From Candidatus Bathyarchaeia archaeon (lineage in GTDB: Archaea > Thermoproteota > Bathyarchaeia > Bathyarchaeales > Bathycorpusculaceae): a DNA stretch of 64,000 nt. A program made the translations under genes and the position numbers. The notes beneath the pieces were generated by a model. The model saw only the letters and a program-made list of their open reading frames with translations, did no database searches and had not been told where the DNA came from. The DNA lies in NCBI GenBank assembly GCA_038882975.1, contig JAVZNE010000001.1, positions 192,001-256,000 on the forward strand, given 5' to 3'. Below, one piece after another: positions 9,838-14,463 of this stretch. Within the stretch, counting starts at the first letter, position 1; the number at the start of each line of letters is the position of its first letter.

Positions 9838-9952
9838 GCGGGGGTTGCCAAGCCTGGCCAAAGGCGCAGCCCTGAGGAGAAACCCTTCCAAAAGTTTCGC
9901 GGAACGGCTGTCCCGTAGGGGTTCGTGGGTTCAAATCCCACCCCCCGCACCA
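9838..9952 (+). tRNA. tRNA-Leu(GAG) with 27-nt intron at 37/38 (9878-9904), CCA encoded
   Basis: Acceptor GCGGGGG/CCCCCGC, anticodon stem CAGCC/GGCTG, loop CT-GAG-G, long variable arm, T-arm GTGGG-TTCAAAT-CCCAC, relaxed bulge-helix-bulge. Confidence 0.93.
9940..9950 (+). repeat. att-like core copy 1 (ACCCCCCGCAC, tRNA-Leu 3' end)
   Basis: Identical 11-mer at 11767 and 13067. Confidence 0.8.
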
Positions 9953-9970
9953 TCGCCACAACGTCGAATT

Positions 9971-9996
9971 CGCTCAAACTTCGCTCTTTTTGAGCG
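9971..9996 (+). other. hairpin downstream of tRNA-Leu (possible terminator or att-associated structure)
   Basis: CGCTCAAA-N10-TTTGAGCG, perfect 8-bp stem. Confidence 0.4.
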
Positions 9997-10052
9997 TAAA
10001 ACAGCAGAAAATTGACTTTAATTTTTTGGGTCTCTTTTGATTTTGCTTGAGA

Positions 10053-10069
10053 GTTTATAACTGTCAAGT
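10053..10069 (+). repeat. subterminal inverted repeat, left
   Basis: GTTTATAACTGTCAAGT matches the reverse complement of 13035-13051 at 16/17. Confidence 0.7.
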
Positions 10070-10246
10070 CCAAAAATAAATTGTTTCAATAGGATGGGAT
10101 GGGAATGGAAAAATAAAGAATTCTTCCGGCCGTTCATATAACGAATCTTTATCTCTATTAGACTCAACAAATTGACAAACACACTATATATAAATTGGTT
10201 AAACTCTTATTAGAATTTAGAGTAAAAATTTCAATCGGCTCAATAT

Positions 10247-10704
10247 ATGTCTATGTCAAGAGATAAGAAACTGGTAACACCTCCAAGGTTAAGTATAGCA
10301 GACCTTCTAGAAATACAACACACCGATATTAATTTTGACAATTTTTCTGTTGAAGAAATCGAAGAATTAATTGGTGACGAAATTGTTCAACGCTATCTGA
10401 AAATGGTTAAGGAAGCACGATTAACACGTTCTCCTGAGCTTGAAAATTATCAAAAGGAACTGAAAGAACAGGTGAAAAAGAAATCCTACTTTATTTTAGA
10501 AAGAAAAGTTAGCGAAGAATTAAGATGGCGAAGAGCGTCTGGATTTGTCTCAATAGCGAGTTGGTTATAGGAGTTCTGTGCATTTTATCTAACAACTTGT
10601 TAGGAGCCTCGCTGCTATTTATAATAGGAGGATTTTTTATGGCGATTGCGGTCGGCTACAAAAAGATTGAGATGGGAATAAAAAAACTAGGAATAAAGAA
10701 GTAA
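10247..10704 (+). pseudogene. frameshifted hypothetical protein with two C-terminal TM helices
   Basis: ORF stops at 10570, but the -1 frame from 10561 reads LVIGVLCILSNNLLGASLLFIIGGFFMAIAVGYKK...KK* to 10704. Confidence 0.6.
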
Positions 10705-11112
10705 CCTGACGAGGGCAAATATGAAAGAGGCTTAAAATTAACTCGTTTCTAAAATTTCATCTTAAAAAAATCATCTTAAATCGGATTAAAAAGGAGATAT
10801 CAAATAGATATCATTTTTGCTTGTTTCACCCGTAGAAATTTTCTGGTTCAAACTTTTCTTTCAACTCATCTCTAATTTATTTAATATTGTCTGAAAATTG
10901 TAACCATGAAAGTGAAAATGCTATCACATTAACACCTGCTAGCATAATATGAATGTAAGAAATGTGGAGTAAAGAAATTCAAAAGCACTCTTATTGTACC
11001 TTCCTGGTTAGCTGACACTGGAAGACCCGTCTGTTATAGTTTTAAACCTTACAGACCTAAAGAACATAAAGATGAGAAAAAGAAACATTGATGCAACAGT
11101 AAACTTAACATA

Positions 11113-11388
11113 TTATGAGTGATATTCAATAAAGTACAATAAAATAGCGAAGATTACTATTTGAAGTATAAGTTCAATCATGACTGACATGGGGTCTATT
11201 GCCCATCCAGCTAATAGGTTAAATGGAAAGGGTAGAGCCTCAATAATCGTCATAATCGTAAGTTCTGATATTAACTCTACAATGTTTCTGCTCAACAAAA
11301 TTCCTATTATCCAAAGTGCTGTAACAATAAACCCAGCAATAAACCACAAGCCTATATACTTAGCTATTTCACTCACTATTTCGCTCAT
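11113..11388 (-). CDS. small hydrophobic membrane protein
   Basis: 91 aa with 2-3 hydrophobic segments. Confidence 0.6.
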   Translation of the reverse strand: MSEIVSEIAKYIGLWFIAGFIVTALWIIGILLSRNIVELISELTIMTIIEALPFPFNLLAGWAIDPMSVMIELILQIVIFAILLYFIEYHS

Positions 11389-11766
11389 TAATAAACTGGT
11401 GTCATCAATAGAGAGATAAAAAGTTTATTTTACGCAATGGCGCTTTCGCAGTGTTCGAGCATTTTGAATGTTTGAATTTCTAAAATGGTTGTTTGAACTT
11501 GGTAAACCATCTATACGCTTTGCTTGCAACTTTCTTTTTCCATTTCATATTCAGCTTCAGTTTTATACACACCTAACCAACACCAAAGAGAATGCTCCTA
11601 AACTTCAAAGATAGAACCGTATGATTACTCCATTCCAGCTAAAAAGATTCCTAGTACTATCAACTTGGACCTTTAGGCTTACCTTTCAGAACATCCCTTG
11701 CTGTATGCCACCAACCAGACATAGGAACATCATTTACCAATGAAAAGTTCAATTCCCTGCTTAACT

Positions 11767-11777
11767 ACCCCCCGCAC
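11767..11777 (+). repeat. att-like core copy 2
   Basis: ACCCCCCGCAC, a GC-rich word within AT-rich DNA. Confidence 0.8.
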
Positions 11778-11972
11778 TGAATTTCACTTCTAGGTTTAAA
11801 CTGTCACATCGTTTGTCGGAATAAAATAAAACTATAGTGTGAGCAAAACTCGGATTACGTAAATAAATATGGTTAAAGCTGTAAATGTCAACTCATTCGT
11901 GTATCTGTTTTTTATGTGATATTGTAGATATATAGAAAACTATAAATGTAGCTACTTGTAATAATATGAAAC

Positions 11973-12155
11973 ATGGGCAAACTAAATGTTAAAATAAAAA
12001 ATGATGTCGATGTCAAATTCAGAGAAGAAGTATTTAGAAGAAAAGGCATGAAAAAAGGAAACTTAACAGAGGCGTTAGAAGAGGCAATACTGTTATGGAT
12101 TAACACAGATACTCTAAAGAAAAAAGAGAAAAATATTAAAGGCGAAACAAAATGA
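11973..12155 (+). CDS. ribbon-helix-helix DNA-binding protein
   Basis: Alternating beta strand KLNVKI followed by two helices (..GNLTEALEEAILLW); TATA-like TATAAA at 11941. Confidence 0.7.
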   Translation: MGKLNVKIKNDVDVKFREEVFRRKGMKKGNLTEALEEAILLWINTDTLKKKEKNIKGETK

Positions 12156-12262
12156 TGTTTTCCAAGGTAGAAATAAATATTAAGTGTATAGCAATAATAT
12201 ATATTATAGAATAAGAAAAGTTAGATAAGCTACTAGAAGATTATGATTTAGAGGATGAGAAA

Positions 12263-12475
12263 ATGAAAAAAAGTAAGACGAGTGGGTTCGAATACATAAT
12301 GTCTTTAGGTGACAAACTTGGAGAATACGTTGAAAAATGGATAGTAGTATTAGACAACAAAATAGTAGCAAGTGGTGAAGACTTAAAAGAGGTTTATAAA
12401 GAAGCAAAGGAGAAACATCCTCAAGAGACTCTTTTCGTAATGAAGGTTCCTGCAGACAAAGTCATGGTGCTGTGA
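12263..12475 (+). CDS. DUF5678-like small protein
   Basis: EYVEKWIVVLDNKIVASGEDLKEVYKEAKEKHP resembles the DUF5678 pattern; GAGG upstream. Confidence 0.7.
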   Translation: MKKSKTSGFEYIMSLGDKLGEYVEKWIVVLDNKIVASGEDLKEVYKEAKEKHPQETLFVMKVPADKVMVL

Positions 12476-12481
12476 CATTGT

Positions 12482-12934
12482 TTGCCTTCTAAAAAGAGTG
12501 TTACTTGCAAATATTTATTTTATAGGTATACCATGCGAAATGGTACAGTTAGGACACTGTTACTTCCTTTAGTTCATGTCCGAATAGAATCTCCCGAAGA
12601 ACATATCGAAACAGATGCATTGGTGGATTCAGGTGCTACTAGGACACTTATTCCAAAAGAGATAGCAGAAATTTTGCCATCTTTGAAATATGAAGAACAA
12701 CGTGCTGAAGTCACGGGTGCTGGAGGTGTATTCCTTGCTAGAGTAACAAGATTGAAAAAGCTTACACTGATAAAGAATATCACTCCATTTGCACATTTTG
12801 TGGAAATTGAAGTGTTAGTTCCAGACCATGAGGGTATTTTACCCTATGTGATTCTTGGAAGAGACTACGTCTTCCGCCGATTTGACATTACATTTCATGA
12901 AAAGAGGCGAAAATTAACTTTTACAGAAATCTAA
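12482..12934 (+). CDS. retropepsin-like (clan AA) aspartic protease
   Basis: ALVDSGAT catalytic motif, flap VTGAGG, ILGRD. Confidence 0.82.
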   Translation: MPSKKSVTCKYLFYRYTMRNGTVRTLLLPLVHVRIESPEEHIETDALVDSGATRTLIPKEIAEILPSLKYEEQRAEVTGAGGVFLARVTRLKKLTLIKNITPFAHFVEIEVLVPDHEGILPYVILGRDYVFRRFDITFHEKRRKLTFTEI

Positions 12935-13034
12935 ACGGCGAGAAGTTCAAATGTAACGCCAATCGCATTAATGCATACAACCAACTAGGCAATCTTTTTA
13001 TGGAAAATGGAGAAATTGACTTGTAGATAATGTC

Positions 13035-13063
13035 ACTTGACAGTTTTAAACGACAGTATAAAC
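13035..13063 (-). repeat. subterminal inverted repeat, right (two tandem motif copies)
   Basis: Reverse complement reads GTTTATACTGTC + GTTTAAAACTGTCAAGT. Confidence 0.7.
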
Positions 13064-13066
13064 CTA

Positions 13067-13077
13067 ACCCCCCGCAC
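13067..13077 (+). repeat. att-like core copy 3
   Basis: ACCCCCCGCAC at the right island boundary. Confidence 0.8.
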
Positions 13078-13161
13078 TTTTGCATTTATCTCCTATTACA
13101 CACAGAGAATATGGTAAGTCTTATCTACTTGAGATTTTGCACGCTGCAAAACTAAAATGGT

Positions 13162-13237
13162 TGGTAGCCCGGGGGAGATTCGAACTCCCGTCGGCGGGTC
13201 CAAAGCCCGCTATGCTTGTCCACTACACCACCGGGCT
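13162..13237 (-). tRNA. tRNA-Gln(TTG), CCA encoded
   Basis: AGCCCGG/CCGGGCT acceptor (A1-U72), anticodon arm GCGGG-CTTTGGA-CCCGC, GTTCGAATC T-loop. Confidence 0.95.
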
Positions 13238-13262: not shown

Positions 13263-14387
13263 TTAACTCTTTGATATGTGTGTTTTGATTAAATGTTTCC
13301 TTTCTCGCCTTATTTTCCATATGTCTTTTCTAGCCTTTTTGATGGTTTCCGCCGCCTCCGCCTTACTTACATTAGCCGTGTCATTTAAGCTTAGAAGCTT
13401 TACAATGTTTTGACAGTGTTTTGGGTTACCTTTTTCAAGTTTTTCTATCGAGTGCATTAGTCTTGTGTAGTCTATTTTCTGCCTTTCAACTATGGCTTTT
13501 AGCCAAGCATAGTTTTCAACAATGTTTAGGGATATACTGGATAAGTAGTGCACTGTTTCAGCAAACTTTCTAGAGTTTATCATTGAGTTTGCTCTTAAAA
13601 TTGTGCCTTGCATGAACGCGGTGTTAAAGTAATAGTTTAAGCTTGTTCTAACTTTGAAATGCACGTTTTTCAACGTTTGAGATTTCCGTTTAACGATGAA
13701 GCTCATTTCGTCCCAAACAGCTTTGAAGAGTTTTAGCTTTTCTTCAGCTGCTGTTATATTCACATCATCTAGTTTAGCCATTACTATATAATCGTTAAAA
13801 ATTTCTGGCATGCCAAGCTTTTCCGCTGCAATTTCCACTTTTTCTAGGAATCGGCTGTTTGAAAAAGGTTCGAGAGTTATTTCCAACAATACACGCAAAA
13901 TATTTTCCATGGCAACAACGGCGAAGAGATGGGCGCTTAGATGGTCGCCTTTGGTGTGGGCTGAGGTTGCACGGCTTAGGTATATGTCTGACTCTATTAT
14001 GTGGGTTTCTATCCTCATTCCAATCCTTTCATGCGAGCCATAAAACTTCGCCATTGAAAGCTTTGTATTTGTCAAAGTCCAGTCCCTATCGTATAGGATT
14101 TGGACTTCGTAGAGTTTTTGGTCAAATTTTGGATGTATTGGACCTTGAATCAAATGTTTTGGAACAAAATTAAAGTCTAGAAATAGGTCGCCAACAGAGA
14201 CTCTCTCCACATACTCGTCTTCGAGAGGGTTATTGCTGAGGACTAGCAAGTCGACATCACTTGAAGGTACAGCGTCGCTGCGGCTCCAGCTTCCAAATAA
14301 GCCTATCCCAGAAATGGTTTCGTTGGCAGCCATCTCTTTTACGATTTTCTCCAGCGTTTTTCGCACTTTCTCTGGGAGCTTTATCAT
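13263..14387 (-). CDS. Pol-beta-type nucleotidyltransferase domain protein with helical C-terminal region
   Basis: LFGSWSR..SDVDLLV motif; start trimmed to MIKLPEK. Confidence 0.75.
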   Translation of the reverse strand: MIKLPEKVRKTLEKIVKEMAANETISGIGLFGSWSRSDAVPSSDVDLLVLSNNPLEDEYVERVSVGDLFLDFNFVPKHLIQGPIHPKFDQKLYEVQILYDRDWTLTNTKLSMAKFYGSHERIGMRIETHIIESDIYLSRATSAHTKGDHLSAHLFAVVAMENILRVLLEITLEPFSNSRFLEKVEIAAEKLGMPEIFNDYIVMAKLDDVNITAAEEKLKLFKAVWDEMSFIVKRKSQTLKNVHFKVRTSLNYYFNTAFMQGTILRANSMINSRKFAETVHYLSSISLNIVENYAWLKAIVERQKIDYTRLMHSIEKLEKGNPKHCQNIVKLLSLNDTANVSKAEAAETIKKARKDIWKIRRERKHLIKTHISKS

Positions 14388-14463
14388 TTTGGCACAACTC
14401 TTTTGGTAGATTAGTAGCACTAATCATTATTCAAGATTTGTGAAGGGGATATTTTAGTTTAAA

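Follow-up and report, generated by a model that had tools for sequence, protein, structure and literature searches.

In a 64,000-nt stretch of the genome of a Candidatus Bathyarchaeia archaeon (GenBank assembly GCA_038882975.1, contig JAVZNE010000001.1, positions 192,001 to 256,000 of the forward strand), a repeat-bounded insert beside a tRNA gene carries a small gene of the Pfam family DUF5678 followed by a gene for a retropepsin-like aspartic protease. We refer to the whole stretch as the window and number positions from its first letter. The order DUF5678 then protease is a conserved two-gene unit, and structure prediction supports binding of the two proteins, with the conserved C-terminal tail of DUF5678 placed in the substrate cleft of the protease. 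Our tentative interpretation, which we hold at somewhat less than even confidence, is that the locus is a mobile toxin-antitoxin (TA)-like cassette in which DUF5678 inhibits the protease. The window comes from contig 1 of a genome bin of 1.42 Mb in 15 contigs that is 94.7% complete. A preliminary description made from the letters alone had placed three small, intact, co-oriented genes at 11973-12934, and the open reading frame (ORF) coordinates agree: a ribbon-helix-helix (RHH)-like gene comes first, then DUF5678, then the protease.

A protease with retropepsin hallmarks and its small neighbor

The protease gene (12482-12934, + strand) encodes 150 aa from a TTG start. The protein matches the Pfam family PF13650 (Asp_protease_2) with an E value of 6.2e-9 (36.9 bits against a cut-off of 24.3), as well as PF13975 (29.8 bits against 28.2) and PF00077 (RVP; 25.3 against 20.7). 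Glycine-rich flaps and a hydrophobic-hydrophobic-G-R-D/N sequence are defining motifs of retropepsins. Here, these are the flap G79-A-G-G and I124-L125-G126-R127-D128, and the catalytic motif is D49-S50-G51-A52. Residues D49, G51, A80, L125, R127, and D128 do not vary among 25 relatives. A profile alignment to the protease of human T-lymphotropic virus 1 (HTLV-1) spans LLDTGAD and GAGG. The AlphaFold 2 model has a predicted local distance difference test (pLDDT) score of 92.1 and a retropepsin fold. A Foldseek search with this model returned 217 PDB chains at E <= 0.001, led by APRc and the proteases of Rous sarcoma virus (RSV) and human immunodeficiency virus 1 (HIV-1). The best match was Rickettsia APRc (5c9f; E 3.6e-7, template modeling score 0.61-0.68), and the RSV entry was 1bai. 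The aspartic protease with a DSG motif that had been proposed is thus borne out by families, motif, and fold, and by sequence and model, the protein has all the hallmarks of an active retropepsin.

About 28 residues precede the canonical protease fold. They form three extra strands and contain a conserved CKYLxY motif. A TTG-Pro codon pair lying a few bases past the DUF5678 stop is conserved as a start among relatives, and we therefore preferred the 150-aa form of the protease over the 133-aa form given by gene callers for several close relatives. One subclade (L002, L010-L015, L036) carries TTC where the ancestral start is TTG and lacks any ATG, GTG, or TTG ahead of CKYLxY, and the extension is still protein-like. 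A TTG-TTT-n-n-TAA mini-frame, one base out of frame, is conserved in the same subclade; in L036, the mini-frame has three codons before TAA. These genes may be either decaying copies or cases of an unusual translation start. In two members, L010 and L011, the protease is in addition interrupted by an in-frame stop.

The DUF5678 gene (12263-12475, + strand) encodes 70 aa and ends 6 nt before the protease TTG, the gap that had been described earlier. It matches PF18929 with an E value of 9.7e-15 (54.6 bits against a cut-off of 23.2), so hidden Markov models place both this protein and the protease above Pfam cut-offs. Searching 1.84 billion proteins gave 465 DUF5678 representatives at E <= 0.001. 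Among the best 150 of them, 144 are at most 100 aa long and 127 end within 3 residues of the aligned C-terminus. Named relatives of the small protein are from Bathyarchaeia and Nitrososphaeria bins. Modeled alone with AlphaFold 2 (pLDDT 80.8), the protein folds as helix, two strands, helix, strand, and tail, with the tail (residues 62-70) disordered. The C-terminal sequence ...MKVPADKVMVL is nonetheless conserved to the final residue: 6 of its 11 positions (M60, P63, K66, M68, V69, and L70) are invariant in 23 DUF5678 sequences. A Foldseek search of the PDB with the DUF5678 model found nothing at E <= 0.001, and a wide VIA-align search gave a best Z score of 3.6 and identified no solved analog. 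A search of the ESM Atlas gave DUF5678 clusters only, some of them automatically named “succinyl-CoA synthetase,” which we take to be mislabels. Tandem-repeat forms of DUF5678 exist, as two longer proteins, P0134 (197 aa) and P0197 (254 aa), have two and three DUF5678 stretches per chain, respectively, at the C-terminal end.

The two genes occur as a pair

A search with the DUF5678 alignment gave 27 close loci, 4 from species genomes and 23 from metagenomes, and at 22 of them the next gene downstream, on the same strand, is the protease. Within these 22, two loci have an in-frame stop (L010, L011), one has a frameshift (L025), and three are cut by contig ends (L002, L015, L021). The five loci without a downstream protease are L003, L005, L020, L027, and L028; L020 retains an N-terminal remnant of the protease followed by unrelated sequence, and L028 is itself no clear DUF5678. 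In relatives, the two frames overlap by as much as 114 nt or stand up to about 37 nt apart, mostly within 50 nt.

The pattern extends across the class, where 106 of 401 genomes encode DUF5678, with up to 5 copies. We examined a class-wide sample of 69 DUF5678 genes, made up of the 29 best matches that were given loci plus 40 hand-picked from further down the list, and scored a retropepsin by a Pfam match at E <= 0.01 or by our own protease profile. A retropepsin gene lies immediately downstream in 48 of the 69. The other 21 comprise 2 remnants, 2 ORFs of about 150 aa without a Pfam match, 1 contig end, and 16 with none. From the opposite direction, the protease profile gave 53 matches in 47 of the 401 genomes, 40 of them just downstream of DUF5678. 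When the matches are limited to E <= 1e-20, DUF5678 is directly upstream in 17 of 19. Of the two unlinked strong matches, one (G305) is a fragment from the C-terminal end and the other (G009) an open frame of 210 aa. The genome from which the window comes has exactly one DUF5678 and one protease, adjacent to each other, and DUF5678 was found in one of four other genomes of the same genus. The pairing whose co-occurrence had been put forward for checking is a conserved linked unit in all three counts.

The open frame in G009 (G009:C19, equivalent to L128:752-1381, + strand) contains the protease relative with an E value of 4.8e-42. Its extra N-terminus resembles, by eye, an AbrB/MazE-type swapped hairpin, with no Pfam match at E <= 0.01. 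If the likeness is real, a classical antitoxin-type domain would stand here in place of DUF5678.

Retropepsin-like genes in general are found in 81 of 201 genomes of the class, in up to 11 copies, and 23 of the 150 matches listed are linked to DUF5678. These counts make DUF5678 the dedicated companion of one retropepsin branch. Retropepsin-like genes, of about 120-140 aa, are strikingly abundant in the class, many genomes having several, with 11 matches in G001 (0.9 Mb) and 8 each in G003 and G185. At loci L099-L127, several retropepsins follow 65-91-aa ORFs without a Pfam match or adjoin PIN, MNT, or HepT genes, and other retropepsin partner families may exist. Small ORFs that precede other retropepsins in the class had no family in Pfam.

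A tail predicted to lie in the protease cleft

Next, we predicted the complex of the protease with DUF5678. The score was 0.89 (0.90, 0.89, and 0.89 in separate runs), compared with 0.02 for the best of three controls, so the pair is predicted to bind. As a benchmark, 116 of 157 solved complexes and 2 of 215 mismatched pairs score this high, counts that hold only roughly here since custom alignments were used. Contacts agreed between runs to at least 84%, and the pLDDT of the partner was at least 85. DUF5678 is unlike any solved structure, which makes it improbable that the score reflects a complex already known to the predictor.

On the protease, the predicted interface comprises residues 10 and 12-16 in the N-terminal extension, 41-45 in the strand before the catalytic Asp, L47, D49, G51, A52, R54-I64, the flap tip at 77-81, and L120-G126. 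On DUF5678, it comprises the first helix (5-21), the last strand (56-61), and the entire tail (63-70). The N-terminal helix and third strand of DUF5678 are predicted to pack on the extra strands of the protease and on the strand leading to the Asp. The tail is predicted to sit against D49/G51/A52, the flap tip, and the pocket wall formed by P121-L125. From motif alignment, we take D49/G51/A52, the flap tip, and P121-I124 to correspond to D25/G27/A28, 47-50, and 81-84 of HIV-1 protease. Since these residues line the substrate cleft of the HIV-1 enzyme, we read the tail as a cleft occupant. The model thus supports binding of DUF5678 to the protease with its conserved tail in the substrate cleft. 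Predicted binding over the active site fits the earlier suggestion that DUF5678 might either inhibit or activate the enzyme, and the model does not distinguish inhibition from activation.

Contexts of the pair and loss of the protease

The neighbors of the cassette vary from locus to locus and include genes for enolase, lactate racemase, and acetyltransferases. IS240-type transposases lie immediately upstream in L012 and L024, and VapBC-like pairs of PIN and MazE/AbrB genes are found near the cassette in L005, L014, and L026. In L005, from a Nitrososphaeria bin, DUF5678 has no adjacent protease, and the island around it has many PIN, DUF433, UPF0175/RHH, and DUF3368 genes. A separate retropepsin gene is found 1 kb further downstream, behind a 140-aa ORF of no family. 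With presence in 106 of 401 genomes and insertion sequences, an integrase, and VapBC-like pairs as neighbors, the distribution and contexts resemble those of a TA or defense cassette, as had been anticipated.

A broken protease stands beside an intact DUF5678 in L010, L011, L025, L020, L041, L054, G189, G044, and G381, the last three having internal stops in the protease match. The protease-profile search showed no full-length protease of this subfamily without DUF5678. In pairwise comparisons with unsaturated synonymous divergence (dS), the ratio of nonsynonymous to synonymous substitution rates (dN/dS) is 0.13-0.27 for the RHH-like gene. The corresponding ranges are 0.07-0.28 in DUF5678 and 0.08-0.40 in the protease. 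Purifying selection acts on all three genes.

An accessory gene upstream of the pair

The first of the three genes (11973-12155, + strand) encodes a 60-aa RHH-like protein, a putative transcriptional regulator. Its RHH label is weak: it matches RHH_6 (PF16762) with an E value of 5e-4, below the Pfam cut-off (21 bits against 27). Eleven of 12 homologs match the same family, likewise below the cut-off, and the closest PDB sequence matches are RHH proteins with E values of 0.1 and 0.32, neither of them significant. An alignment of 12 homologous sequences is consistent with a strand, a helix, a G-N turn, and a second helix. In tblastn searches of 56 other loci, 17 have the gene immediately before DUF5678, and these 17 include distant members of the CKYL branch. 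Rather than a core part of the module, as had been supposed, the RHH-like gene is an accessory outside the core that was added upstream in the present lineage.

A promoter/operator-like stretch precedes this gene (11924..11957, + strand), with two (A/T)TGTAG repeats around a TATAAAT box. The box lies about 26 nt before the RHH ATG, and the TGTAG-flanked arrangement is conserved across 8 aligned upstream regions. We infer that this region may be an operator overlapping the promoter of a leaderless transcript. A terminator scan of 11700-13200 found none.

A repeat-bounded insert at a tRNA gene

GC content is 0.29-0.38 over 10000-13000 and 0.42-0.48 in the flanks, and the flanking genes encode glutamine synthetase, an Lrp/AsnC regulator, and TFB. 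An intron-bearing tRNA gene of 112 nt (9838..9949, + strand) was identified with the full Rfam model RF00005 (40.1 bits, E 6.6e-6); ARAGORN did not call it. This tRNA gene forms the left border of the low-GC insert, with its 3′ end serving as an attachment (att)-like repeat. The repeat is the 11-mer ACCCCCCGCAC, which occurs exactly three times in the 64 kb, always on the + strand, against 0.54 expected by chance. Copy 1 coincides with the tRNA 3′ end (9940..9950), copy 2 marks the border of modules 1 and 2 (11767..11777), and copy 3 lies at the right edge of module 2 (13067..13077).

A second motif, GTTTA(N)AACTGTCA, has exactly three matches in the window against 0.02 expected. The first is GTTTATAACTGTCA at the start of module 1 (10053..10066, + strand). 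The other two form an inverted pair around the three genes, with GTTTAAACTGTCA as the left arm (11794..11806, + strand) and GTTTAAAACTGTCA, in the minus-strand reading, as the right arm (13038..13051, - strand), which was also found as an inverted repeat. The three genes are thus enclosed by the inverted pair, which is nested within the direct 11-mer pair. Given the two three-copy repeats and the low GC, the module 2 of the preliminary description is real.

The GTTTA(N)AACTGTCA motif also delimits the cassette in the independent contigs L006, L007, and L009. DNA of L007 matches the window at 89% over 1.18 kb, the match ending exactly at 13077, and a tyrosine integrase lies 2.2 kb from the cassette in L007. 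In L009, two copies of the motif stand back to back between modules. Module 1 (9951-11766) contains short ORFs with no Pfam match and no recombinase. The neighboring DNA had been called decayed; the absence of Pfam genes from module 1 would be compatible with this, and an origin from broken genes is possible. The insert is modular, with units bounded by the tRNA-end 11-mer and GTTTA(N)AACTGTCA and no recombinase of its own in the window, and the insert at 9940-13077, like those of L006, L007, and L009, looks like an array of small cassettes mobilized in trans. One contig of run X1 (depth 79.5) joins 9950 to 11780-11806, then to 13044-13081, and then to 13160. It is a weak hint of a possible variant of the locus without the cargo of either module, as the matching sides of the joint are just 26-29 nt and the likeness threshold was 85%.

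Just outside the insert, host DNA carries a tRNA-Gln (TTG) gene (13162..13237, - strand; ARAGORN, and Rfam at 61.5 bits). Beyond it, a 385-aa gene (13263-14420, - strand) has an N-terminal nucleotidyltransferase (NTP_transf_2/Polbeta) domain, and its remaining ~300 residues have no Pfam match.

Relation to known proteases and TA systems

The cassette protease has the same fold and motifs as the retroviral proteases of HIV-1, HTLV-1, and RSV (MEROPS A2). C-terminal residues of the upstream p6* peptide inhibit HIV protease until processing, and the predicted placement of the DUF5678 tail would parallel this in that a tail occupies the protease cleft. Unlike the retroviral case, DUF5678 is a separate folded protein of 70 aa, made from a gene to itself and outside any polyprotein, the protease has about 28 extra N-terminal residues (three strands), and the cassette is archaeal, chromosomal or mobile, with no virus. 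The best structural match, APRc/ApRick (RC1339) of Rickettsia conorii (PDB 5c9b/5c9d/5c9f), is a prokaryotic single-domain retropepsin with about 18% sequence identity to the cassette protease. APRc is reportedly membrane-embedded and autoprocessing and has no DUF5678 partner. The protein is the subject of PMC4140852. In the Sulfolobales, Saci_1895 is a small retropepsin protein adjoining type III CRISPR-Cas genes, according to PMC3973734. At about 100 aa and in a defense context, it is, like the cassette protease, an archaeal single-domain retropepsin, whereas the cassette has a different partner and context and no CRISPR genes nearby.

The omega-epsilon-zeta system is a three-component type II TA system with an RHH regulator, a small neutralizer, and a larger effector. 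The cassette is like it in gene order, tight spacing, and patchy, mobile occurrence, with no relation in sequence or fold. As in TA systems, the genes are small, adjacent, and co-oriented, with the partner first, and form a conserved unit of patchy, mobile distribution. We know of no TA toxin that is an aspartic protease, and aspartic proteases do not come up in a comparative survey of TA systems from 2009. In ImmA/IrrE modules (COG2856), an HEXXH zinc metalloprotease is combined with an Xre-type repressor. The present cassette instead has an aspartic retropepsin and an RHH-like regulator, and only the regulatory logic could be common to both.

We also searched PADLOC-DB 2.0.0, in which the protease matched the B components PDC-M52B (E 6e-6) and PDC-M08B (E 0.0035). 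Twenty of 25 protease relatives matched PDC-M52B and 17 of 25 matched PDC-M08B, all weakly (best E 2.3e-8). These phage-defense candidates are unvalidated and come from guilt-by-embedding, according to PMC12988326. Our literature search, with subscription journals and supplements outside its range, turned up no publication about DUF5678 or about a retropepsin that has such a dedicated partner. It likewise found no prokaryotic study of PF13650/Asp_protease_2/PF18929/TIGR03698.

Discussion

If DUF5678 inhibits the protease, it would keep the enzyme inactive, either in the manner of an antitoxin or as a trans-acting pro-peptide. The tail would act as a pseudo-substrate or product mimic, and DUF5678 might hinder dimerization as well. 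In lineages that have it, the RHH protein would repress the operon at the TGTAG repeats around the TATA box, as in omega-epsilon-zeta. Once DUF5678 was lost or degraded, the freed protease would cut cellular proteins and bring about growth arrest, by which the mobile module would be stabilized or an infection aborted. We favor inhibition, not decisively, because of the one-sided decay, the mobile, TA-rich contexts, and the contacts at the active site. A bolder version seems possible to us and rather doubtful: DUF5678 and its retropepsin would be a widespread, undescribed TA or abortive infection (Abi) family with an aspartic protease as toxin and a free-standing “pro-peptide” antitoxin whose tail is threaded in the cleft, a prokaryotic counterpart of the retroviral restraint and possibly its evolutionary relative.

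Several observations weigh against inhibition within a TA-like cassette. The one-chain model would fit an inhibitor, an obligate subunit, an activator, or a bound substrate alike, and blocked dimerization as well as a plugged dimer cleft. The linkage counts come from related genomes that are not independent, and they describe a pattern and are no test. At least 127 of the 150 listed retropepsin-like genes of the class have no DUF5678 neighbor, and retropepsins in the class clearly have other roles too. Neither the IMG/VR viral contigs, searched with the protease profile, nor PHROGs, where nothing scored under E 0.04, contained a relative of the protease. The A components of PADLOC had no match to DUF5678 and 22 relatives at E <= 1. 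The RHH_6 match falls below its cut-off, and the RHH gene is absent upstream in most of the 56 loci searched. Finally, a full-length protease was never seen without DUF5678, as one would expect of an obligate helper.

That last point belongs to the main rival explanation, in which DUF5678 would be a chaperone, activator, substrate adaptor, or physiological substrate of the protease in regulated proteolysis that serves the cell or the element without TA logic. We consider this explanation possible but on the unlikely side. The same linkage and predicted binding apply to it, and the presence of the N-terminal extension of the protease in the interface suggests co-folding. There is also a precedent, since other bacterial retropepsins act in multi-protein complexes: a retropepsin-like protease is reported to work in the tripartite RimABK complex (PMC11957791). 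However, the tail is predicted to contact the catalytic Asp, the flap, and the pocket as a cleft occupant would, and the invariant D31 of DUF5678 lies outside the interface, so that a heterodimer would have one catalytic Asp. Decay that breaks the protease while DUF5678 stays intact, the mobile, TA-rich contexts, and the patchy distribution also fit a mere helper poorly.

The protease might instead serve as a switch of a mobile element, cleaving the RHH repressor and so inducing excision or transfer, with DUF5678 as the restraining sensor. A precedent is ImmA, which cleaves the repressor ImmR (PMC2701414), and the cassette does sit in a repeat-bounded insert at a tRNA gene, with operator-like repeats upstream of the RHH gene and a tyrosine integrase on the related contig L007. 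We nevertheless regard such a switch as improbable, given that the RHH gene is upstream in just 17 of 56 other loci, that many pairs stand directly beside housekeeping genes with no element genes near (L014, L004), and that the module in the window has no recombinase.

Translation of the pair as a Gag-Pro-like fusion by read-through, followed by processing, is very improbable. The two genes in the window share one frame and are parted by a single TGA and two codons (12473-12484), and the subclade L002, L010-L015, L036 has no start codon before CKYLxY. However, the frame relation across 46 loci is 0, +1, and +2 in 15, 18, and 13 cases, as expected by chance, so the shared frame in the window is a coincidence. 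With the conserved ancestral TTG-Pro start just after the stop, this led us to reject read-through or frameshift fusion. No fused DUF5678-protease was present among the best 150 representatives, and none was seen at 124-2000 aa, the latter being weak evidence. That the three genes are a non-functional leftover of a decayed element is just as hard to credit: module 1 has no recognizable genes and some relatives have broken proteases, but the frames here are intact, all catalytic motifs are kept, and dN/dS is 0.07-0.20 against relatives with unsaturated dS.

HIV has made retropepsins one of the best-studied groups of enzymes, and the functions of their prokaryotic relatives are almost all undescribed. 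To our knowledge, no dedicated protein inhibitor of a prokaryotic retropepsin has been described. The window contributes a third gene, RHH-like, whose upstream repeats are conserved, and a module at a tRNA that is delimited by repeats. It also contributes a complex prediction, backed by controls, that puts the tail in the cleft, linkage counted from either gene, decay that strikes the protease and spares its partner, and a resemblance to PADLOC candidates. The pair is compact, a 70-aa partner and a 150-aa protease, and comes with a specific prediction, namely residues 63-70 in the cleft. If the partner inhibits, an aspartic protease would join the TA or defense effectors, and DUF5678 would be a natural protein scaffold from which retropepsin blockers could be built. 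If it activates, the pair would be a new kind of two-subunit retropepsin. Either outcome would explain a DUF with hundreds of archaeal and bacterial representatives.

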